A stretch of 62,822 nucleotides of DNA, filler included, from Globobulimina sp. (lineage: Eukaryota), in the NCBI GenBank assembly GCA_003354225.1. It is 37 parts of 37 records of this genome, joined end to end, with 100 filler letters (N's around TTAATTAATTAA, not from the genome) between each part and the next. Parts side by side here need not be neighbours in the genome. Positions count along the whole stretch, not along the records: positions 10,212 to 11,812 come from PIVH01014267.1; 36 more parts are not named here. One strand, 5' to 3'. The notes under the pieces are model-generated. The model searched no databases. It saw only the letters and a list, made by a program, of their open reading frames with translations, and had not been told where the DNA came from. Below, one piece after another: positions 5,576 to 57,033 of the stretch (its first letter is position 1; each line of letters opens with the position of its first letter). The translations under genes were made by a program, and so were the position numbers.

Positions 5576-6708
5576 TCACCTTCTCCTTTTTAATGCTTTT
5601 GGTCTTGCTTTAATATTTTGACATTTTGGAATATGTCTTTTCGCAGTTTCTTCAGCAAATTTTCTTCCGCAATGTGGACATTGCACTCGGCAATCAGGGA
5701 CAGAAGATGGTATATTTGGAATATCCGCTAATGATTTACCAGATTTTAATGCTTCTTCGATTGTTTTTGAATTTCGAATTGCTTCTCTTAACATTGATGA
5801 CTGTGATTTCCATCTTAGTTTTGCTGCTATTTTTTTTCTTTTTAATTCTGCCTCAATCTGATCTGAATTACTATTTTGCGCTGCTTTTAATGCTTCGTCA
5901 TCTGTCCTTTGTATATTAAATTGTTTACGTTTCTGTCCAAATACTTTTTTACATATTTTAATATGTCTTTGCAAGGCGGATTGACTAAATTTGCGCCCAC
6001 ATTGCCGACATGCGATCCGTTGCACTGAATCACTGTCCACAAAGGCACCTTCTTCCGATTCTAATTTTGCTAATAAGTCTGCCGCCGATGATGGAGGAGG
6101 CGGAGCTATCTCTTCCTCGTCTTGCTGTTGATTAAAACCATTATTGTTAGTATTCATATTATTATTTATATTTATATTCATATTCATGTTCATATTATGA
6201 TTGGTATTCATATTTGGATTGGTATTATTTTGTTTAATTTTCATATTTTGGAGATTTTGAGACATTCGCATTGAATTTCCATTGTTATTCATATTATTAC
6301 GATGTAATGGCTGTTTCTTTATTTTTTATCAACCAATAAATAATAAATGTAAACAGAGAGAAAGTAGTAACAAATAACAAACCGTATTCGTATTCGTATT
6401 ATCAAGATCAATATCCATTTTTGATGGTGGTTTTGCAAAATTATTATTATTATTATTGCTATTATCCGTATCCTTATTCATTCGCGAATTCATTTGATTT
6501 TGATTAAAATTACTATTAATATTATTAATATTTTTATTGTTCATATTACTGATATTATTGTTCTTGTTGGTATTATTATTATTGTCCATATTGTTCATAT
6601 TATTGTTGGTGTTGGTGTTGGTGTTATTATTTCGTGAATTCATTTGAATTCGATCAACATTATTATTGCCATTGTTGCTGTTCCGTAAAGAATAACATTG
6701 CTGTTGTT
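5576..6708 (-). CDS. C2HC zinc-finger protein (ZC2HC1-like), Asn-rich, 5' truncated; intron about 6317-6382
   Basis: Two fingers, CRQCGRKF..LQRHIKIC and CPHCGRKF..AKRHIPKC, with a KW..QS..LREAI linker. Confidence 0.85.
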
Positions 6709-7259: not shown

Positions 7260-8410
7260 TTACCAATATGACCTTCTTTTCTTTTCTTCCTTTGCCTTGA
7301 CTTCCGAATCACTCATTTTATGCGCAATGCACCAACTCACATTCGGAGTAATTTCCAATGTCTTTGCATCTTGTCTAAACCCAACAAATCCAGCTAAAAA
7401 TTTCAATTGTAATTTTTTACCATAATAAATCCATTCAACCGGCGCACTTGCAATACCCGTCGGATATCTATTAATATCGCCACCCGCTTCTCTGCCCCAT
7501 CCACCACTGCCATGCAATGTAAATCCTTGCTCAACGTATGCTTTATCCATTGCATACGGAACACAGTAATGATTCCATCTTTCTTTCAAAAAAGGAAACA
7601 ATATATTAAACCAACCGCAATAATACGAATAAGCACCACTGCCGCCAGTCGACCCTCGTTTTATCATCGAATTCCAGAAAACGCAATCAATTTCTCCATC
7701 AAATGCAACTATAAACCGGTCTAATAATGGCAATAACGCGTTGCCCCATTCTTCCCCGAATTTAGGCTCGACTTTTTCCTTCAATAATTTACTGCATTTT
7801 GCCTTTAATTTCACCCAATCTTTCCGTGTCCCATCTAATGTAATCTCTGGGAAGCCACAAGCAGTCATCATACCATAACTAAAATAATTTTTACAAATAT
7901 CCTATACATAGAACAAAATACAAAAACTTAATTAAATAATTTGCAGTTATATAAAGAGTGCACATACCATAATTGTAACTTTTGTCGCAATTTGTTCAGT
8001 TAAAGTGGCAGAGGAAAAATCAGCGTTAAATAATTCAACTGTATCTTTCACCGTATTCTTGTCGATTTGTTGAGCAAATTCATTTATAACACCAACCCAA
8101 TCATTCTTAGCTGAGCCAAGAACAAAATTATCCCGTCTTATTAATAATTTCTTTTTGCCCTCATGACTCACATATTTTTTTCTTAGTTTCTCTGCATTTT
8201 GGTCAACGTGAATTGCCACGCCCTGTAACACCAATAACCATATATGTTCTGCTTTAAATCGAAAGGGGTAATGTTCACTCCATGCAGTCAACGACGACAC
8301 AATAAAAGAATGTGTGGATGCAGTTTGACAAATTTTATCTGTCGGATTTGAATATGCTTCGGCTGCATTACAATTTGCATCATTCATAACCGCAGGTCAA
8401 GGCAAGTCAG
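7260..8410 (-). CDS. DUF4419 family protein, 5' truncated; intron 7902-7967
   Basis: Motifs AWSEHYP..HIWL..QG.A.HV..NAEKLR..V.HEGKK.L, CGFPEITLDGTRKDW and GW...FP; the GT..AG intron joins the two ORFs in frame. Confidence 0.85.
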
Positions 8411-8576: not shown

Positions 8577-10040
8577 ATGAACTCACAAGTCTGTTCAAAT
8601 GCTATTGTAATTGATACTGGTTCTCATTCAACAAAGATTGGTTTTTCTGGAGATAATGAGCCGCAATGTATCATTCGAACAGCAACAGGAATCCTGGACA
8701 ATGCTGCTGATAAAAATAAGAATAATAATAAGAAATTTGACAAATATTTAATTGATACATCATTAAATGCATGCGATGAAAATACGATGAAACAAATCGA
8801 AATAGATTTACCATACACTGCCGGGTTTGTGCATAATATGGAATCATTGGCATCCATTTGGATGAATGCAATGAAACAAAAATTAAAACTTTCAGAGTCA
8901 GAGATAGCATCAATACCAATTTTATTATCAGAGCCATCCCATTGGAGCAATTCCTCCATTTATTGCAATTTATTTATTAAATATCGCGAGAATTATTGTA
9001 AAACAATCTTTGAAGATTTCCATGGCAGTGCGATGTATCTATGCTGCGACTCAGTGTTATCCTCTTTTTCGCATGGAAAAAAATCATCGATTGTTCTGGA
9101 TTTTGGTGGTGGATCGACGCGATGTACACCGATATATGATGGCTATGTTATAAATAATGGTTGTAAATTTAGCAAATGCGGCGGTGATTATTTTGACAAG
9201 ATATTAAGTGAGAAAATTAATATTAAGCAGGGTGTTAATGATAAGTTGCAATCATATAACCATAAGCCATCATATATGGAATTTAGTAAACATTCACTGA
9301 TTACAGATATAAAAGAGCATATTTTAAGAGTAAAAAGTGCAAAATTTGATGTTATAAATGTGAAAAATAAGACATTTGATGTTGGCGATTTAACATTTCC
9401 ATACAAAGAGAGTGATTCATATGAATTGAGTCCAGATAATAAGAAAGAAAAAGAAAATGAAATAAATGAGACTAAGGAATGTATTTATGTGTTACCCGAT
9501 GGTGAGAGCTTAGAATATGGAGATTTGCAATATTCAATCACTGAATTATTATTTATGGATTACAACAAAGATTTTGAGAATGATTTAGAGAATATTTGGA
9601 TTGATAAAATGTCAAAATTAGCCGCAAATAATAATAATAATAATGCGAATGCTTGCTATCAATTGCAAAATACACAAGAAATATGGAAAGATGTGAATTA
9701 TAAAAGGTATAAGTTCAAAGGCATTGCATCGATGGTAAACGAATCATTAAATGGATGTGATATTGACATTCGATCATTGTGCGTTGAGAATATAATAATA
9801 TGTGGTGGTCATAGTCGATATAAAGGAATTATTGAAAGAATTGGCAAGGAATTAAGTATTAACTTGCCATATTCATATAAGTATAAATTATATTTTAATG
9901 ATACACCGCGAGAAAGATTATTTGCGACATGGTTGGGTGGCTCTATATTATCGACTACTGCACATTTCCAAAATATGTGGATTACAAAAGAAGATTATAA
10001 TGAATATGGACCTACTATTGTTCATAGGAAATGTTATTAA
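8577..10040 (+). CDS. ARP4: Actin-related protein, most like nuclear ARP4/ACTL6
   Basis: IVIDTGSHSTKIGFSGDNEP, YVLPDG, CDIDIR, ICGG and ERLFATWLGGSIL..FQNMWITKEDYNEYG..IVHRKC, with large insertions typical of ARP4. Confidence 0.8.
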   Translation: MNSQVCSNAIVIDTGSHSTKIGFSGDNEPQCIIRTATGILDNAADKNKNNNKKFDKYLIDTSLNACDENTMKQIEIDLPYTAGFVHNMESLASIWMNAMKQKLKLSESEIASIPILLSEPSHWSNSSIYCNLFIKYRENYCKTIFEDFHGSAMYLCCDSVLSSFSHGKKSSIVLDFGGGSTRCTPIYDGYVINNGCKFSKCGGDYFDKILSEKINIKQGVNDKLQSYNHKPSYMEFSKHSLITDIKEHILRVKSAKFDVINVKNKTFDVGDLTFPYKESDSYELSPDNKKEKENEINETKECIYVLPDGESLEYGDLQYSITELLFMDYNKDFENDLENIWIDKMSKLAANNNNNNANACYQLQNTQEIWKDVNYKRYKFKGIASMVNESLNGCDIDIRSLCVENIIICGGHSRYKGIIERIGKELSINLPYSYKYKLYFNDTPRERLFATWLGGSILSTTAHFQNMWITKEDYNEYGPTIVHRKCY

Positions 10041-10305
10041 CCATTATTTACAAACTTTATTTACAATTTATTTATCCTTGCGCTCAAAACATCAATTGCT
10101 TGAAAACTCTCNNNNNNNNNNNNNNNNNNNNNNNNNNNNNNNNNNNNNNNNNNNNTTAATTAATTAANNNNNNNNNNNNNNNNNNNNNNNNNNNNNNNNN
10201 NNNNNNNNNNNTAAAATCATATCAGTTGCTTCTTTAATCTTCATTGTAAGTGGGCTTTTGGTCTATCTATTTTTTTTTAAAAATAGGTATGAATTACTTT
10301 TCGCT

Positions 10306-11037
10306 CTAATTTTGATTTTGTCGATTATTGTTTGGAAAGCGATTATTTGAGTGATTTGGATTATTTTGTGTTGCTCCAAATCTATTTTGAGGGAAGTTAT
10401 TGGGATTTTGGTTTGGATGAAATGAATGGGAATTTCTATTTGAGTCAATATATATATTGACTTTTTTATCTTTGTTCAAATCCTCAATGCTGAAATCTGT
10501 AAATGTGCTTAATAGGAATTGGATGACATTGTTTCGATTGGAAACTGTGTGGAATTGATCAGTATAATAATTGTTGTCCATTAATAAACTGAATGGTGTG
10601 GTGTGATCCAAATAATATCGGAATATTTCCATCACGGATTGCCAGAAATTGACTACATTAAAGTATGGTTTCTTGGTAAATGGCGCTATTTTTTGTTTAA
10701 ATAATATAACGCTGGCTTTACTGATTTGGACCCAATCTACTAATAAATTGATGATCGGATTGGATTCGTTATAGTTATTTAATGCACATAATACAAAATC
10801 CAATGTGTCCGACCATGCATCGAGAATGTAATAAAGGGAATGCTTGGATTTAAATGCGGAATGAATTTCTTTTGTTGGTGAGCTAATGTCGGATAATGTA
10901 TATGTTTCCGATAAATATTTTAAAGTGGCATGCAATAATTTGGGGACATTGATATCTTCGCTATCAGGGAATCCCGTGAAGAATTTGATAACTGTATCTC
11001 TTGTGTCTCGTTTTAATTTTGTACGCGAGGGAACTGT
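10306..11037 (-). CDS. Orphan protein with N/Q/P-rich C-terminus; no ATG near the 5' end of the open frame
   Basis: About 243 open codons after an in-frame TAA at 11038-11040; possible splice acceptor AAACAG ending at 11034. Confidence 0.55.
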   Translation of the reverse strand, partial: TVPSRTKLKRDTRDTVIKFFTGFPDSEDINVPKLLHATLKYLSETYTLSDISSPTKEIHSAFKSKHSLYYILDAWSDTLDFVLCALNNYNESNPIINLLVDWVQISKASVILFKQKIAPFTKKPYFNVVNFWQSVMEIFRYYLDHTTPFSLLMDNNYYTDQFHTVSNRNNVIQFLLSTFTDFSIEDLNKDKKVNIYIDSNRNSHSFHPNQNPNNFPQNRFGATQNNPNHSNNRFPNNNRQNQN

Positions 11038-11117
11038 TTATTTAATTATTTTATACGTTTGTATATGTTTTCACTCTGTTTTACAATCTATATTTAATAA
11101 TTTGAGGGGATAATTTA

Positions 11118-11359
11118 TACTTCGGTAAAAGTAATATAATATATTCTCGGTAAAGAAGTTTCTTGTTACTGACGTTACAGCGTCGGGCAGTTTTGGTAAA
11201 AACTTGGTGCTTAGGTAAAAGCTGTTAGTTTAAAGAGAGAATGCTTCGGTAAAAGCCTTCTAATGCAGCTTTGGTAAAAGCTAAAACGTATATACTGTGT
11301 TTTGTTCTTGTACTTAGGTAAAAGTACTGACGGATAGTAAACGTTTTTGTAGAAACGTT
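11118..11359. repeat. Array of short hairpins with conserved NGGTAA hexaloop and variable stems
   Basis: Seven stem-loops with NGGTAA loops at 11118, 11144, 11189, 11209, 11243, 11267 and 11310, plus two variant hairpins at 11171 and 11340. Confidence 0.85.
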
Positions 11360-11650
11360 ATATACAAAGAGAGGAGAAAGATGAACTATGCCACACAAAC
11401 TTGTATATGCAGTTTGTGCGACTCACGATATAAAACACCGTACTTACGGAGATAAATCCAAGAATGAGAAAGGCGGTATCATTCTATGCGTGTACAGAGA
11501 CCCAGCTGCAGTACCGTGGCATATTGTGATTTACCGACCAGACACACCTCAAAAATAAAGCAAAAGTTGGGCAGTTTTGTATAGTTAAGAATAAACGGAA
11601 GAGAGTCATTTTAATTATGTAAACACAATAATTAAAAGATTACGGGTAAG

Positions 11651-11812
11651 TTAGTGTAGAGATAGACCTTCAACTTTGGTGATTAATTCTTTATTTGAGG
11701 CAGTATTGGCCCGTTTATTTCCATTCATCTCGCGATGCGTTACATTTTCTTCATTTGCTACAGCTTTCGATAATAAAATTGTGGCTTCTTTGTCTTGGTT
11801 GCGGTCCACGGT
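11651..11812 (-). CDS. 3' end of an unknown gene
   Basis: Frame open from the contig edge: TVDRNQDKEATILSK...ELITKVEGLSLH-stop. Confidence 0.5.
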   Translation of the reverse strand, partial: TVDRNQDKEATILLSKAVANEENVTHREMNGNKRANTASNKELITKVEGLSLH

Positions 11813-11912
11813 NNNNNNNNNNNNNNNNNNNNNNNNNNNNNNNNNNNNNNNNNNNNTTAATTAATTAANNNNNNNNNNNNNNNNNNNNNNNNNNNNNNNN
11901 NNNNNNNNNNNN

Positions 11913-13513
11913 TAAAAACCATTAAATCGAATAATAAATTTGCGATCCAATAACAAAGCAGACCTAACCCGGCGATGATTTGTTGATGTTTTACTTTGGA
12001 CTCTCTTTCGCGTACAATATGCGACGCGAATGAGGTTGGGATGAAAGCATAAGACAAAGATATTAATATTATTATCATCAGAGTCACGCCAAAATCTATC
12101 ATTTCTATGTCAGAGCTCGCCAATGCAAAGGGATGCGATGAGACTGATAATGTACTCGCTGTATCGCCGCGAATCTTATTTAATATCGCCTGGTTCCATT
12201 GGTTCACCAGTGCTGGCAGCAAATGTGTGGCCTTGTCGTCGTACAAAAAAGTCAATGAATGGTCATTTGCATCCACATACAACGCAGCATAAATGGCATC
12301 GATATCATATGGCTGTTGTTTGTATGTTTTATTTGCAATCCAATGATTTAAATCATTATACAAAGAGATATCATTTACATTTATAGAGTCAATATCGTTT
12401 GAAAAGGTGCTTATGATGGAGGTGGATGTGCTGTTTATATCATTGTAGGGAATAATGAACGGTGATTGATATGCGGTGGTCGTAATATGTAAGATCGGCT
12501 GCGCTGTGCTCATAGTATTAGTACCAAAGGATTTAATCAACGACAATCCAAATAATAAGGAGATTAACGGCATGATGCATTGCGTGAGAATGCCCCGTAA
12601 ATCTCGGATTGAGACACGGAATCTCTTTTGAATCACAGTGCCAATGTGAATGCGGCAACGTCTGTTGTTACAAAAGTAAAAATATTTATATATAATGAAA
12701 AGAATATTGAAGCAATCTTAACTGATATGAGGATAAATGCGGTCGTTGGAATTTGCACAGTGAGTCAATGATAGCTCGATCAATCTTGAATTCCTCCGCT
12801 GTCAACTGCTCATTTCCATGCTCAAAGCCATGCTTTTCCTCGTTTGGTGCTGTCAATAATGTGTCACTGATATTGCTGTCATGAAATGGCTCAATTTTAG
12901 GAACAGAATATATGTCATTATCACCAGAAATCTTCAAAAATACTTCCTCCAATGTCTGACCATCACATACAACTTCATAGTTAGACAAAAATCAATAGAC
13001 AGGATATCCAAACTTAACTGTAACAGAAACCGCATAATGTTGCACTCGCAACTCAGCCAAATGACTGTCGACATAATGAAACAATGCTGGAAATTTGGAG
13101 GAATCCTGAATGGAGGTTTTGAAAATAACCTCAATCGACGATACTGCGTCCATATTGTCACTGCATTTGGCAATATCCGCATATACATTGTCTGAGTTAT
13201 ATAATACAGCATTTTTGATGAATTGCTGGATTTTATTGGTGATTTGCTCTAAATGTGCTTTGATATCATCAACATTGCAATGCAGAGTAAATATTAAATT
13301 ATACCCCACGCCACACACCGATTTCAAATACAATGCGCTTCCATATATTCGGAGCTTACCATGTGCCATAATACCGATTCTATCCGCAATCGCATCTGCT
13401 TCATTCATGTCTATTTTTTCATTGATACACAATATGCATATTTACATATAAAATATAGACAGAATACCATGTGTTGTCAGCACAATACATCTGTTCTCTT
13501 TATATTTCTCTAT
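11913..13513 (-). CDS. ABCA-family transporter, internal fragment with several introns (e.g. 12956-13018)
   Basis: MNEADAIADRIGIMAHGKL..GS..YLK...GVGYNL, spliced YAVSVT/TLEEVFLKI, and VRERESKVKHQQIIAGL...YWIAN. Confidence 0.92.
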
Positions 13514-18277: not shown

Positions 18278-18725
18278 GTGTCGATTTCACGAATTTTATT
18301 CATGTATTTATTGGATATAACGTAGACGTTTCAAAGGATAGCTTTCATATTATACACAGTTGGTTATTGAACCATTATGGATGTCTGACATGAGTATCAG
18401 ACAAAGTTGTCTACAGGATTCCATTTTAGCGAAGCCATGCTTTGAGGACAGATTTTGTTGACTTTGAAAGGAAACTTTTTAGAAAACTTGGTGTAAAAGT
18501 GAAAAAATGCAACAATACAAAATTAAATATTTAAATAAAGACAATCCATTAAATATACATATAAATAGTTGCTAAATATATAATAATCTTATTTGTTTTT
18601 AAAATTTGTACTCGCGNNNNNNNNNNNNNNNNNNNNNNNNNNNNNNNNNNNNNNNNNNNNTTAATTAATTAANNNNNNNNNNNNNNNNNNNNNNNNNNNN
18701 NNNNNNNNNNNNNNNNAAATATAAT

Positions 18726-18999
18726 AGACGGTGGACAACCTTTATGGCCCACAGATAGATACTTAGACGGTGGCAACCTTTACGGCCCACAGAGAGACGG
18801 TGGCAACCTTTATGGCCCACGTACAGAGAGAGTGTGGTACCCTTTTGAGGTCCACAAAGAGAGAGAGTGGTAACCTTTATGGCCCACAGACGAGACATAA
18901 GTATTATGTCAGTTATGTGCAACATCACAGCTTGATATAGCTTGTGTTGGTTGGCATAACCATAGAGATAGAGAGTGGTGGTACCTTTGTGTGGTCCAC
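18726..18999. repeat. Minisatellite of 21-22-bp GTGG...CCAC units with GA-rich linkers
   Basis: Units like GTGGCAACCTTTATGGCCCAC at 18731, 18770, 18800, 18834, 18867 and about 18978. Confidence 0.85.
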
Positions 19000-30975: not shown

Positions 30976-32222
<1,247 letters not shown>

Positions 32223-32322
32223 NNNNNNNNNNNNNNNNNNNNNNNNNNNNNNNNNNNNNNNNNNNNTTAATTAATTAANNNNNNNNNNNNNNNNNNNNNN
32301 NNNNNNNNNNNNNNNNNNNNNN

Positions 32323-40284: not shown

Positions 40285-42087
40285 TCTTTGTAATGTTTAT
40301 TACTTTATATTATCGATTTGCTAAATGCGGAGGTTTGCAATTTTCGGACTTTGCTAAATGCGAATTGCCGACAATTTTGTTAAATCAATGTATAAAGCCA
40401 GCTGCGTTATTTTTTAATTATTACCAGACTTTCTTGCTATGTCAGCAAGAGTGAGCAAAGCAGATTTGAATTTGGTTTCATAATATTCAAATGTTCTGTT
40501 TTTTGCTTTGTATTATCCTGAAACAGAATTTTGTAGTGTAAAGCAATTCCGAAATTTTATTTCAGCTAGTGGCACAATTTAAAAACAGAAACGTTTGATT
40601 GAATTTTTGTACATATTGATTATTAGTATATTATTCATATGCAACTTTTTCGTTGTCGAGGCAGAGTAACGTTTCCGAAAACACAGTTTTTGGCCGAGGG
40701 GGCTCCGGGGGGTGGTGGGTGGNNNNNNNNNNNNNNNNNNNNNNNNNNNNNNNNNNNNNNNNNNNNTTAATTAATTAANNNNNNNNNNNNNNNNNNNNNN
40801 NNNNNNNNNNNNNNNNNNNNNNTCAATGCAATCAAGCAAAATAATCAAATGTTAAAATATTTCAACCTCATCAACATACAACAAATATTAACATAATTGT
40901 TTTACTTTTGTTTGAATCGTTATTTAATTATATTATAAGTCCGCTAATCAAGACAACATACAATTAATTATTCAGTAATTTTTATCTCTTCCACTTTTCA
41001 ATCTGTTCAATTAACAGTGAAGTCAGTGAACTCTACAAATAGTACACTTATGTTAAAGGTTTTTCAAAAAGTGTAAAAACAGTATGTAAAAAGTGTAAAG
41101 GTTTTTCAACCAATTAATAACATCAAAAGTATTACAATATGTTCTAACCGTTGCACATAAATGCACATTATTAGAGCAGCAAACTCAAAAAAAACCTTAC
41201 TTAAACTTCTTCAAATCATCTTCTTTTCTAAGCATATACGACTCGCGCTGTGATTAGAGGTATATTGACTTGCGCTGTGATTAGAAATTGTGAATGTGGC
41301 ATATTCAATGAACAAAGACCCTTTCTACCATTTAAATACACAAAATATAACATCAAACTAGAATTTTCTTCGACTGCATGCCTCGCGAATATGCGTGGTA
41401 TAAAATAAAAATACGGCATGGCATCAAATCCATTTAAATGTCACGGGAGAGAAGCGATGTACACCCGGTCATTACACACTGCCTTAGCTATGAATATGAG
41501 TGATGATTATAAATTATTTCTGTGGATGCCGATTCTCCTCGAAAATGAATGAAGAACAAGCAATGTGGCAACATCTATGCATCCAATCTCTCGTTCAATA
41601 ATCCAGCACAAATCAACAACAATCAGTTTACCACAATTACAAGAATAAAGCGATAGACTTTGGCTCCCCGACAATGTAAAAAAACACACTCATATCATAC
41701 ATAAGCATCGTACGTGGCCACTGACGCCGTTTGACGGTTAAATTGTAGCTATTACATATTACTCCGCAGTCCCTCGAGCTACACAAATATCAAAATCATA
41801 ATCATTATAGTTTGAAACTGAAAAACAAGGCACCATCTTATTGAGAACCTGCAAATAGTAATAGCTGCGATAATTATTACAATGCAACATTCACAATTTC
41901 CAATCACAGCACATCACAGCCGTAGAATATGAGTGTATATGCTTAGAAAACACAATTAAATTTAATTAAGATATACAAATTTGTTTAAAACTTTTTTTTT
42001 AGCGAACTAGTCTTAAAGCGTAAGCATAGGCGGTTGCTGCATTGCGATCTATTTCAATCACAACAAACCAACACAAACAAGAAAAAC

Positions 42088-44222: not shown

Positions 44223-45602
44223 ACTCTGCTCATTTCCGGCAGTAAATCCCTTAGTTCCATTCATATTTCCCTCTGTTGGATGTTCATGATCATCGCTGTA
44301 TAAATCATCACCAGATTCATCATCATCGTAATTATATATACCAGCACCTCCAATGTTTTCTACTTCCACCATTTCAATATCATTTATTTTATCATCATTA
44401 TTCATATTCGAATTCGGTGTCACCATTTGATTAACATTTGAATCATGACCAATACTAACAATATCTTGATTTCTTTTATTATTTCTTTGCTTTCGATAAT
44501 AAATCACCAAAAACACAGAAACAATGATGATAAACATCGATATTATAAAACAGCAACAAATTATAATAAGCAGCATCATCCAATCATCATTATCATTGTT
44601 TTTATGTTGATTTGCAATCGATGCTTCCACTGTGCTTGAAATAACAACCGGAGCTTCTTTTTGTTGCCAACTCGATGGCTCTTTAGTTGGTGCATTGGAT
44701 GGCGATGGTGTTGGGGTCATAGTTGGGCTCGATGTTGGCGCATCGGATGGTGCTGTTGTTGGTGTATGAAATGGTACATTGCTCGGAGAAGATGTTGGTG
44801 CATTGCTTGGTGGGATTGAAGGAGAAATGGATGGAGGATCAGATGGGAAATCTGTGGGAAATTGAGATGGGACATTACTTGGATTAGATGTCGGTGATGG
44901 AGTAAATGGGAAATCAGATTCTTTCAATATTTCAATGGAATCCAAATCAATGGAATCCAAGTCGCGGCCTCCCATTATGATGACAGCATCGTTGGATGTG
45001 ATGGAAGTATGCCATGCTTTTGGTTCATTCAAAGCAATGTTCCAATTTAATATGGACTCAGTGTATGGATCGAATACCTCAATAATTGATAATGGTAAGA
45101 TAGCATCAGAAAGGCCACCAAAACAGAAAATATAAGACAAAAAATAACGACATTCAAGATTTTCAATGGCTCTGCTTAATGTTTCATCGATTTTAATCCA
45201 TAAATCATTGGATATGCTGTATTTCTCAATAGAATCCAAAATATTTAATGCTGGACCATCCCATCCGCCAAATACATAAATGAACTCTGCTGTATTTTCA
45301 TCCATAGCACAACCATGATGCGATCGTTTTTGTTGTAATAATGTTTTTTGTGCCCATTCATCTTTCGAGATGTTATAAATTTGTGTTGTTGCTAACCATT
45401 GTCCGCCCACATTATCTCTGCCAGCAATCACAAACAAAATACCATCCACAATCATAAGGCATGAACCCTGAGCACGTTGAGGTAACAATGCATTGTATGA
45501 TGCTGTATTTTGGAAAGATTGTTGCTGTAAATCGAATATAATTAGATATACACCATAATGCCAAAATGCTCCAACATATATTCGAGGAACAGAATACAGC
45601 AA
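44223..45602 (-). CDS. Kelch-repeat type I membrane protein with PT/PS-rich stalk
   Basis: Kelch repeats IYVFGG, IFCFGG and IIMGG; PTxxP stalk; long hydrophobic helix followed by RKQR. Confidence 0.85.
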
Positions 45603-54422: not shown

Positions 54423-56022
54423 TTCTATTTGATTCAGGCTGTCATCGCTGTTACATTGCTGAAAAAACGGCCAAAAGATTGAAACTCAAAATGGGAAAAA
54501 TCAGCACAATTTCGGTGCTCACTTTTGGCACTGACAAACCACAGATCATTCAAGCACCAGAAACTTCCTTGATCATCGAATTGCAAGGTAACACAACAAT
54601 GCAAATTACTGCACATGTCGTACCAACAATTTCGGGTAAAATCCATCGTTTCCCAGTCAAATTTGAACTGGAAAAATCGTTCAAAATCCCCCCGGCACAG
54701 TGGGCTGATTTACCCCCAACCGAATGTGAAACATCTGATATAGATCTACTTATTGGCAGTGATTATTACCTTGATTTCTTGTTAAATTGTGAAAGGAAGG
54801 TATATGGTCAACCTGGTTTGTATCTTATGAACACCAAACTGGGTTATATTTTGGCCGGTCGTGTAAAGGATGACACAATATGTAAAGAAGATACCGAGCC
54901 ACCTGTGGAAGGAGTTTTTCTACACACAAGCGAGGATCCACAAAGGTACTTCAATCGAGATTTCACACGCGACGTCAAGTATGGAAATCAGAGAAATAAA
55001 GAAGCTGATTTACGGCGAGAATTGTCTGAGAGTAATACATCTATTCATGAAAATCAACTTCTCGCTGTGGAGGGTCCTGTTGCACAGGAATCACTAAAGA
55101 AGACAACAGGACATGATTATGTTTCCCCCCTCGATCTGACACTGGAGAATCATACGGAACAGAGAACAGAAGAGAATTTCAATACCGGCGGTTCCTTGTT
55201 ATTCCACAACAAGAGCAATTTTGATGCATCAATTGCTCACAATTATTTCTCTGTACAAAGGATTCGACCCAGTTATGGATTGGTGGAAAGAAATATTATT
55301 TTGTTCTGTGCTCTTTTATTATGGTCTATTCAACCTGCATTTGGTTTACCAATTATTATTATTTCTGGAATTATTTTGCCATTATTCACTGATTCTGTCG
55401 TGTATTCCCACAATACTGATCATTCTGGCTGTGCAATTAAACATTCTGCTCAATTTCCGGATGAAAATTGCAATTATTCTGGTGGGACACAAGATTAGTA
55501 AGTTTGGTGTTTAGATAAATTTAATTCACTTTTTTTGGTTCATATATGGCAACTCACACATTTACATTATTACAATACTGTACATACCATACATTAACAT
55601 TCATTTTCTTTCAGCAATTAGGTAGTTATTGATGTTATTATTATTTTGCATTTGTATTTACTTTTTCTGTCGGGAGTGTCGCGATTAGCGCGAATTATAT
55701 TATTATTTGTTAGACAATATTGAGTTATTAATATTTAATTTAGTTAGAATGCATAAATAGGAACATTTTGTATATTTACTTTGCTTATTTTAGTAGTATT
55801 TGAGCTATTATTTAGTTATTTCAATGCATTTATTATTTTGTCAATTAGAATTTATTTTCAATTCCACAGTAATCTGTTTAGCTTATATTTGTAGCAATTT
55901 GTAATGATTATTTAGTATTTCTTGCGTTATGGCGTGTATTTTGGCCGTCTTTTAGGTTAATTTCCTCAGTATCCGGCGTTTCCTGAGTTCCTGCCATTAT
56001 TTATAGGTCTGGAAACACATAT
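54423..56022 (+). mobile_element. Bel/Pao LTR retrotransposon remnant (post-protease region) with putative PPT and 3' LTR start
   Basis: ISVLTFG, VP.I, IDLLIGSDYY and TKLGYILAG (DUF1758-type region); GGGAG at 55672-55676 immediately before TGTCGCG. Confidence 0.7.
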
Positions 56023-56427
56023 NNNNNNNNNNNNNNNNNNNNNNNNNNNNNNNNNNNNNNNNNNNNTTAATTAATTAANNNNNNNNNNNNNNNNNNNNNN
56101 NNNNNNNNNNNNNNNNNNNNNNCTGCTCTCTGTAATTAGGAGTAATGCACGCATTAAATGCGAAATGATGAGCAGAAATGAGTTTGGCCTGCTTGACAAA
56201 TGGAGCTAACGCGCAGAGTGTTTTAATGGTTTGCGTTGTTGCTCATGTCATCGTCATCCCATGCTCAACTCCTCCTTACAATTAAATCTGTTGTTTTGAT
56301 AGAGTTTTATTTATTTAATCAGCGCCCGCAGTTCTCAGCAGTTTCATTCACCACATTTAAATATAATATGTCACCACATGTGCCAGAGAGTGTGCATGAT
56401 AAATCAGTTCACCATATAGTTTGTTTA

Positions 56428-57033
56428 TAAGGTTTTACTGGCTTATATGGATTTATTTAATGTGAAAAAGTATGCTCTTTGCAGCTCATTGTTGCTCATC
56501 AGTGCTCATAAAATGGGCGCATTCACTCCTAACCTAATTACAAGCAAACAAATATTTAATCGGCGCACATATGCTATACTACAGATCATTCAAAGAACAT
56601 TACAGCGATGGTGTACATGATCTTAAGGCAGCATGCCTTAAGGCTTACTCAAAAGTTCTCCTGCTGCGGAAAACCCCTATAGCCTTGTTATATGGTTTTA
56701 CTGGTTTATATGGATTAATTTAATGAGAAAAAGTATGCTCATTGCTGCTCATCAGTGCTCATAAAATGAGCACATTCACTCCTAATTACAAACAAACAAA
56801 TATTGAATCGGCGCACATATGCTATACTACAGATCATTCAAAGAACATTACAACGATGGTGTACATGATCTTAAGGCTGCATGCCTTAAGGCTTACTCAA
56901 AAGTTTTCCAGCTGCGGAAAATCCCTATAGCATTGTTATAAGGTTTTACTGGTTTATATGTATTAATTTAATGAGAAAAAGTATGCTCATTGCCACTCAT
57001 TATTGCTCACATTCAATGTGCGCATTCACTCCT
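56428..57033. repeat. Tandem repeat of ~250-260-bp units (about 2.4 copies)
   Basis: Units begin TA(A/T)GGTTTTACTGG at about 56428, 56691 and 56939; the first two are nearly identical. Confidence 0.92.

Follow-up and report, generated by a model that had tools for sequence, protein, structure and literature searches.

An Array of Seven Hairpins with a Fixed NGGTAA Loop and Covarying Stems: A Candidate RNA Platform from Globobulimina sp.

Introduction

In a non-coding stretch of a Globobulimina sp. assembly seven small hairpins follow one another within 210 nt, and all of them present the same loop on stems that differ from unit to unit. What kind of element is this, does it exceed what chance produces in such DNA, and on which strand would it act? 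An earlier note on this DNA had proposed selection on structure and a multivalent protein-binding platform, with the origin of a mobile element or virus as one of several possible roles. Here we report a computational analysis of the locus.

The DNA that was analysed, called the window from here on, is 62,822 nt long and consists of 37 pieces of about 1,600 nt each, joined by 100-nt spacers of N runs around TTAATTAATTAA. Because the window is made of joined pieces, the true context of the array is confined to the piece at positions 10212-11812 (1.6 kb). The base composition of the pieces is AT-rich, with about 30% GC.

Results and Discussion

Seven Hairpins Share One Loop

Direct reading of the letters and a scan of the window recovered all seven NGGTAA hairpins of the earlier note, each at its position and with its letters. 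The hairpins are perfect, lie on one strand between 11118 and 11327 (210 nt) and combine a stem of 4-6 bp with the loop NGGTAA. In the following they are given for the plus strand together with their folding energies as RNA. H1 (TACTT-cggtaa-AAGTA, TACTTcggtaaAAGTA) at 11118-11133 has a 5 bp stem and an energy of -1.6 kcal/mol. H2 (TTCT-cggtaa-AGAA, TTCTcggtaaAGAA) at 11144-11157 has a 4 bp stem in which two inner pairs are swapped relative to the CTT/AAG core (-0.5 kcal/mol). The 5 bp stem of H3 (AGTTT-tggtaa-AAACT, AGTTTtggtaaAAACT) at 11189-11204 has an energy of -3.0 kcal/mol, and closure to a GGTA tetraloop is possible in this unit. H4 (GCTT-aggtaa-AAGC, GCTTaggtaaAAGC) at 11209-11222 and H5 (GCTT-cggtaa-AAGC, GCTTcggtaaAAGC) at 11243-11256 reach -2.7 and -3.3 kcal/mol, respectively. 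H6 (AGCTT-tggtaa-AAGCT, AGCTTtggtaaAAGCT) at 11267-11282 has an energy of -5.6 kcal/mol. H7 (GTACTT-aggtaa-AAGTAC, GTACTTaggtaaAAGTAC) at 11310-11327 has a 6 bp stem (-5.0 kcal/mol).

Two variant hairpins had been added to these seven, GACG-ttacag-CGTC (GACGttacagCGTC) at 11171-11184 and AACGTTT-ttgtag-AAACGTT (AACGTTTttgtagAAACGTT) at 11340-11359. Both are present as described, and their membership is doubtful. According to our own arithmetic from the shuffle counts, about 1.5 hairpins with a 6-nt loop are expected per strand in 242 nt, a background rate that allows both by chance. Consequently, they were not counted as members. A possible eighth unit in inverted orientation (TGGT-cggtaa-ATCA, one G-T wobble) is found on the minus strand at 11527-11540, 170 nt further to the right. 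When the window is searched for stems of at least 4 bp with wobble pairs allowed, only two hairpins with an exact NGGTAA loop occur elsewhere than in the array, and this unit is one of them.

The spacings from H1 to H7 are irregular (25, 46, 19, 34, 25 and 44 nt), and calculated from the coordinates the motif falls in the reading frames 0, 1, 2, 0, 1, 2 and 1. TRF with a minimum score of 30 detected no tandem repeat in the array; its sole report, at 11052-11070, lies outside. No ORF spans the array on either strand, and the ORFs of the plus strand cover at most one or two units. These results agree with the earlier note, which had excluded a tandem repeat as well as a coding repeat.

The Cluster Exceeds Chance Expectation

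The hexamer GGTAAA as such shows no overall enrichment, since 38 copies were counted on both strands of the window compared to 34.9 ± 5.7 in shuffled sequences. Seven of these 38 copies are crowded into 200 nt of a single strand. When NGGTAA loops on stems of at least 3 Watson-Crick pairs were sought, eight hairpins were obtained on the plus strand, namely the seven of the array and one with a 3-bp stem at 45477, and none on the minus strand. With perfect pairing and stems of at least 4 bp the seven units of the array are the only such hairpins in the window. Dinucleotide shuffling of the 37 pieces (200 shuffles) gave a mean of 0.65 and a maximum of 3 for the same count.

A cluster statistic that corrects for looking everywhere was applied, in which any common 5-letter loop core within 250 nt was accepted. 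The largest same-loop cluster of the window had seven members. In the shuffled sequences (n = 200) the largest cluster had one member in 25 cases, two in 174 cases and three in one case. The total number of hairpins with a 6-nt loop was not raised (716 versus 761 ± 42 in shuffles), and no comparable cluster with loops of 3-8 nt was found in the other pieces of the window. Dinucleotide shuffling, which the earlier note had named as a check, thus does not produce clusters of this kind.

Stems Covary While the Loop Is Constant

The seven units were aligned without gaps and scored against a six-pair helix. The rows of this alignment are seven duplication-related units of a single locus, with no orthologous or paralogous arrays among them. 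The four inner pairs are formed in 28/28 cells, with six double changes and zero single-sided changes. Pair 5-18 is GC in four units, AU in two and UA in one; pair 6-17 is CG in five units and UA in two; pair 7-16 is UA in six units and CG in one. Pair 8-15 is invariant (UA in 7/7). The covariation score was 0.556 versus 0.268 ± 0.077, and none of 500 shuffles scored as high. The nine double-change cells were attained by one of 500 shuffles. When the 3' partner was slid by 1-3 columns, the proportion of paired cells dropped from 81% to 31-67% and the scores were 0.016-0.341. Compensatory changes therefore stand above both the shuffled and the slid controls, which is the generic mark of a structured RNA, observed here within one locus. 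The claim that the loop is kept while the stems change on both arms is borne out by these values. Since the stems covary within a single locus, the array can be recognised from its sequence alone.

The sequence GGTAAA is invariant in 7/7 units, with all 35/35 letters of GGTAA intact. Variation is almost absent from the two pairs next to the loop (UA in 7/7 and 6/7 units), and part of the "stem" may therefore be a plain sequence motif.

The linkers had been described as unique and irregular. The irregular spacing holds; some relation between the linkers is nevertheless seen. Blocks of about 124 nt at 11117-11240 and 11241-11364 (together 11117-11364) align in register and place H1 opposite H5, H2 opposite H6 and H3 opposite H7. 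In this alignment 64 of 138 columns are identical, and the identities are concentrated on the motifs. The counterpart of H4 is a decayed AGTAAA site. Between the motifs the two blocks have diverged almost to randomness. Thus, the array is an old twofold duplication with decayed linkers. A clean compensatory difference is seen between H3 (AGTTT/AAACT) and H6 (AGCTT/AAGCT). Loop and pairing were kept while the linkers decayed, and this is the pattern expected from selection on the loop plus pairing.

The Array Lies between Two ORF Fragments

In the piece 10212-11812 the array occupies a 614-nt gap with a minus-strand ORF fragment on either side. The first fragment, here called gene B, extends over 10306-11037 on the minus strand and comprises 243 codons from stop to stop. 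The first 130 or so codons of its translation lack an ATG. Homologues are P0002 (46% identity), P0003 (38% identity) and P0004 (residues 584-798 of 886), and the homology spans nearly the whole length of gene B. P0005 was rejected as a relative, as its match is a low-complexity chance match. The family has a helical domain and an Asn-rich linker; the homologues add a Cys/His-rich C-terminus that is not reached by the gene B ORF. Gene B matched no Pfam family and no PDB relative, and its AlphaFold model (pLDDT 43) is too poor for use. Protein matches in the Atlas were all below 0.9. None of 80 pattern matches for gene B relatives in viral contigs was confirmed. The second fragment, gene A, at 11651-11812 on the minus strand, enters from the end of the piece and stops at 11651. 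This fragment has no homologue and no likeness to P0004.

Because the homology of gene B begins before any start codon, gene B probably has a further exon upstream, which would place the array in an intron or in a leader on the minus strand. A minus-strand splice with a start at 11482 and a GTAAGT donor at 11447 was rejected, because joining it to the AG at 11035-11034 would break the phase and because the X5 relative described below does not preserve this donor. An alternative minus-strand donor at 11667 is in phase and weak. On the plus strand a 56-codon ORF at 11388-11558 was considered as a gene. It has no homologue, matches no Pfam family, and its alignment with the X5 relative contains a 1-nt gap; consequently, it was treated as non-coding.

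Folding and the Proposed Function of the Array

On the plus strand the loop reads NGGUAA and is followed by A. On the minus strand, which is the strand of both incomplete ORF fragments, it reads UUACCN preceded by U, in agreement with the earlier note. Folded as single units, the hairpins reached -0.5 to -5.6 kcal/mol as RNA (z -0.04 to -2.53) and -0.5 to -4.4 kcal/mol as DNA. Since each hairpin alone is weak, a bound protein would probably stabilise it. The fold of the minus strand over 11100-11375 kept the mini-hairpins and was better than its shuffles (z -2.88; 3/200 as good). The fold of the whole region on the plus strand was no better than shuffles (z -0.45), which is explained by its G+U-rich shuffles folding well anyway. 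All stems of the array are Watson-Crick paired, so that wobble pairs are uninformative on the strand. As both flanking ORF fragments sit on the minus strand, we lean slightly towards this strand, rather than the plus strand, as the working strand. In favour of the plus strand there is a concrete biochemical parallel, since its loop is identical to an RNA motif known to be bound by protein, the ZRANB2 site described below.

From a fixed asymmetric centre between varying, complementary flanks we infer recognition in a folded single strand rather than in a symmetric double-stranded site. In our judgement there is about an even chance that the array is an RNA platform which shows one loop seven times to a loop-specific protein, on either strand. 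It would be a cis-acting, non-coding element that acts as a single strand, most likely as RNA. In each short stem-loop the same six letters would be raised from the strand as a loop, to be recognised, together with the two U-A pairs nearest to the loop, by one protein or by several copies of it; seven such sites in 210 nt could provide high avidity. On the minus strand the array would sit in an intron or in an untranslated part of the transcript of the flanking ORFs. Hints of repetitive or mobile DNA nearby leave room for a role at the DNA level.

Search for Relatives of the Array

A search of the whole window against Rfam 15 gave 0 matches at the gathering threshold. For the region 10800-11700 at E<=10 two chance-level matches were obtained, mir-7177 with 14.9 bits (threshold 86) and Six3os1_3 with 11.4 bits (threshold 40). 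Neither is a real match, and the array thus has no match among described RNA families. Positions 10000-13000 were without match in the phage and plasmid collections. Searching for pairs of the motif separated by 8-38 nt retrieved 91 metagenome and 7 viral stretches, which gives 98 loci. At least one NGGTAA hairpin with a stem of at least 4 bp was present in 57/98 loci. Ten of the 98 loci contained at least three NGGTAA hairpins within 300 nt, and each of these ten uses one stem sequence. On reading, the 98 loci proved to be tandem arrays of 18-36 nt, in-frame F-G-K repeats or, in four cases, Tol2/Tgf2-like transposon ends. A homologous array with different stems and a fixed loop was not found among these metagenome and viral loci. 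In the literature searched, neither an array of splice-site mimics displayed on hairpins nor an equivalent element was found. The array is a real orphan element with a putative function.

A Mobile Element as the Main Alternative

The main rival explanation, to which we assign a rather low probability, regards the units as subterminal repeats belonging to a small mobile element, probably a non-autonomous one, that inserted between the ORF fragments. The motif would then be the site of the transposase or replication protein of this element, bound either as duplex DNA or as hairpins formed transiently in a single strand. A weak candidate for such an element spans 11101-11553, with the 7-bp inverted ends TTTGAGG/CCTCAAA and AATAA on both sides. 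This pair at 11101/11553 (TIR 7, TSD 5) is the best in the flanks, and its ends bracket exactly the array and the inverted unit at 11527-11540. A pair of this quality was also obtained in 17/300 shuffles and is not significant. The array itself shows a very lopsided orientation, with seven units one way and one possible inverted unit; the piece ends at 11812, and a distant second end of an element would lie beyond it. Nine-bp direct repeats around the array (TTGTATATG and TTTAATTAT) were rejected as evidence, because they occur at the chance rate with about 0.4 expected by our own estimate.

The comparison of the region 10200-11850 with the runs X5-X8 bears on the same explanation. Runs X7 and X8 gave no matches, and from X6 the minus-strand ORF was matched by two short pieces at about 86-90% likeness. 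No contig of X5-X8 covers 11118-11359, and among the sequencing runs listed for the sequence none is on record as RNA. A 70-nt island at 11454-11523 is near-identical to an X5 contig of 685 nt (1 gap and 2 differing letters), which carries another organism label. The word depth of this contig is 63, compared to 6-8 for three other X5 contigs on the same piece. Weaker likeness continues on both sides of the island, including the CTCAAA end, so that the loose ends of the contig resemble the flanks. Positions 11763-11812 are overlapped by two different X5 contigs in opposite orientation; thus, this stretch too has more than one copy in X5. From the depths and the overlapping contigs, part of the piece is probably multi-copy in the relative. 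On the other side, the X5 contig extends about 540 nt past the proposed end of the element, the inverted unit is not kept in its loose end, and none of the other 36 pieces of the window contains a second copy of any part of the piece. The mobile element that had been considered among the possible roles hence gains some weak support from the X5 depth, the inverted unit and the inverted ends with their duplication, while these ends themselves are matched by shuffled sequence.

A further point in favour of a mobile element is the organisation of hAT transposons. They carry many short subterminal repeats near each end, with 17 and 18 copies in Tgf2, according to PMC4890040. The array resembles the repeats described there in having many copies of a short motif within about 200 nt and in the letters TACTT/AAGTA of H1 and H7. 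Tol2/Tgf2-like ends were found in four of the metagenome loci (L013, L019, L033 and L053). Three of them (L013, L019 and L053) contain TACTT-NGGTAA-AAGTA, the same 16-mer as in the array apart from N, plus ACTT-tggtaa-AAGT about 200 nt from the transposon end. The fourth, L033, contains only the related ACTTGggtaaAAGG and AACTTGggtaaAAGTT. In contrast to hAT elements of the Tol2/Tgf2 type, the seven units of the array share one orientation, and no hAT-type inverted ends with an 8-bp target-site duplication were found in its flanks. The AAGTA/TACTT letters of the Tol2 family occur in only 2/7 units and AAGTA is absent from the other five. Compensatory stem changes are a feature of the array and not of hAT subterminal repeats; a sequence-specific double-stranded site leaves them unexplained. 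Transient hairpins meet a different difficulty, as stems of 4-6 bp with DNA energies of -0.5 to -4.4 kcal/mol are too weak for extrusion unaided. As the end of a transposon the array would be unusual in carrying its binding sites as covarying hairpins, which would hint at single-strand recognition in transposition.

Further Alternatives

It is unlikely that the array is a sponge or decoy RNA whose seven 5' splice-site-like GGUAA loops, or U1-like UUACC loops on the other strand, serve at one locus to titrate away or to attract a factor for splicing or RNA processing. This explanation takes GGUAA as the consensus of RanBP2-type zinc-finger splicing factors and as the complement of the U1 snRNA 5' end. 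Feedback with the adjacent gene, whose homologues have the Cys/His-rich C-terminus, would possibly be part of it. According to PMC11789483, single-stranded 5'-AGGUAA-3', a 5' splice-site-like sequence with a GGU core, is recognised by each of the two zinc fingers of human ZRANB2, and arrays of ZRANB2-type fingers read several GGU sites. Judged by letters only, the plus strand of the array resembles these sites, with AGGUAA in 2/7 loops (H4 and H7) and GGUAA in 7/7. The ZRANB2 sites known from PMC11789483 are linear and 2-5 nt apart, whereas the array consists of hairpin loops 19-46 nt apart. Two short introns in the window (n = 2) have the 5' end GTATGT or GTATGC and the 3' end TAG. From these introns, the GGTAA motif is not the typical splice donor of this organism.

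Distinctly unlikely is a homotypic cluster of double-stranded GGTAAA sites for a transcription or termination factor, promoter-borne or intergenic, in which the palindromic flanks are incidental or an aid to DNA shape. Homotypic site clusters are common in eukaryotic promoters, and such a cluster would suit seven invariant GGTAAA copies that share one orientation, lie within 210 non-coding nucleotides and have a minus-strand ORF downstream. The downstream ORF has no start codon, and a promoter at the array is therefore not established. This explanation does not account for the constant complementarity of four flanking positions with differing letters, and the spacings of 19-46 nt show no helical phasing.

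A functionless, decayed duplication of a small palindromic unit appears more improbable still. A mutational process, for example template switching within quasi-palindromes, would have kept the stems perfect. The old twofold duplication, the single locus and the barely stable hairpins agree with such a history. Neutral decay should reach linkers and motifs alike, yet the linkers are near-random while 35/35 GGTAA letters and 28/28 inner pairs are intact. In addition, hairpins as weak as these would be poor substrates for template switching.

A relic of a coding repeat, in which the motif reads Phe/Leu-Gly-Lys in one frame, is extremely improbable: in-frame F-G-K tandem repeats do exist at the metagenome loci L030, L079, L081, L095 and L050 (own translation), but in the array the motif occupies all three frames, stops are frequent, the plus-strand ORFs do not reach beyond two units, and complementarity of flanks is not a coding feature.

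Comparison with Known Hairpin Arrays

The RNA platform that we prefer has counterparts among well-studied elements. Iron-responsive elements are clustered in the 3' UTR of the transferrin receptor mRNA, where five copies are present. They are defined by an IRE-type hexaloop and a bulged C five pairs below. The array resembles these clusters in that several short hairpins in one non-coding stretch present the same hexaloop on differing stems with irregular linkers. It differs in its loops (NGGUAA or UUACCN), the absence of a bulged C and the uninterrupted stems of 4-6 bp; no IRE match was obtained with Rfam. Repeated loops are also found in sponge and scaffold RNAs, such as bacterial RNAs of the CsrB/RsmZ type, the A-repeat of Xist and the dispersed packaging signals of ssRNA viruses. 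By analogy with these RNAs, many weak hairpins with one loop motif would provide avidity for one protein. Their loop motifs and hosts are other ones, and no sequence relation to the array was found. Elements with one loop repeated on variable stems are known as a kind, though not with this loop, this size or this host.

Arrays of weak hairpins form high-avidity, switchable contacts between protein and RNA, as in iron control, CsrA sponges, Xist silencing and virus packaging. To our knowledge, few such hairpin arrays are known in eukaryotic microbes. If the array is an RNA platform, it would point to a protein specific for this loop and to a circuit of regulation in an AT-rich eukaryote that has been little studied, and it would in addition represent a compact natural tethering module with seven sites.

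Other Features of the Window

ARAGORN detected no tRNA in the whole window. Pfam matches in the window comprise actin, alpha-tubulin, BTB, kelch, RPEL, Sfi1 and an amino-acid transporter. An apparent "repeat" each 1,701 nt in the window is a product of the joining of the pieces with their spacers.

Repeats and Small Hairpins in the Window

A 14-mer resembling part of the hairpin array (seven hairpins with an NGGTAA loop and varying stems, 11118-11327, plus strand) was found at 11566-11579. Apart from one change, this sequence, GTTGGGCAGTTTTG, is the same as 11182-11195, which holds the 5' arm of the third array hairpin together with its left flank. The two form family D8 of a repeat scan separate from that of the whole window. 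The copy at 11566-11579 is without the loop. It may represent a decayed further unit of the array.

A second cluster of small hairpins is located at 40368-40675, where three hairpins with a common CCGA tetraloop (AATTGccgaCAATT, AATTccgaAATT and GTTTccgaAAAC) lie within 310 nt. The shuffle control, in which a cluster of three was obtained in 1 of 200 shuffles, covered 6-nt loops only, and the CCGA cluster has 4-nt loops.

In the repeat scan of the whole window, one piece was seen to open with five units of the GAGACGGTGGCAACCTTTATGGCCCAC type (18720-18887, family D9), each approximately 33 nt long, which are 64-88% alike and spaced by 30-38 nt. The scan also revealed a tandem repeat with three copies of a unit of about 250 nt, 84-94% alike (56412-57009, families D4, D6 and D20). 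Long ATT/GTT-rich near-trinucleotide repeats (6130-6620, families D2, D3, D5 and D8) adjoin a zinc-finger ORF on the minus strand (5576-6292) with zf-C2HC_2 and C2H2 matches. If coding, these repeats would correspond to Asn-rich tracts on the minus strand.

The window comprises 37 pieces, each some 1,600 nt long, which are linked by 100-nt spacers consisting of N runs around TTAATTAATTAA; those beside the piece carrying the array are located at 10112-10211 and 11813-11912. ORFs, repeats and inverted repeats touching a spacer are artefacts. Among them are repeat family D1 and the 25 inverted pairs listed (I1-I25) of the whole-window scan, and "ORFs" such as that at 11857-12636.

Metagenome Loci with the Same Mini-Hairpin

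Among the metagenome loci from the pattern scan for two motif copies 8-38 nt apart, L072, L028, L021 and L087 carry tandem arrays of 18-22 nt units, each unit containing a CTT-NGGTAA-AAG hairpin. The GC content is 65% for L072 and L028 and 37-41% for L021 and L087. These arrays look like iteron-type repeats; by context, they have no relation to the window.

Genes and Introns Elsewhere in the Window

An ORF on the plus strand (54479-55498) matches DUF1758, a putative retrotransposon-type peptidase, with an E value of 5.4e-9. Therefore, mobile-element genes are present among the pieces. One short intron each was found in a DUF4419 gene (7260-8387, minus strand) and in an alpha-tubulin gene (30991-32278, plus strand). 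Both introns possess the donor GTATGT or GTATGC and the acceptor TAG, boundaries which are helpful to gene models for Globobulimina sp.
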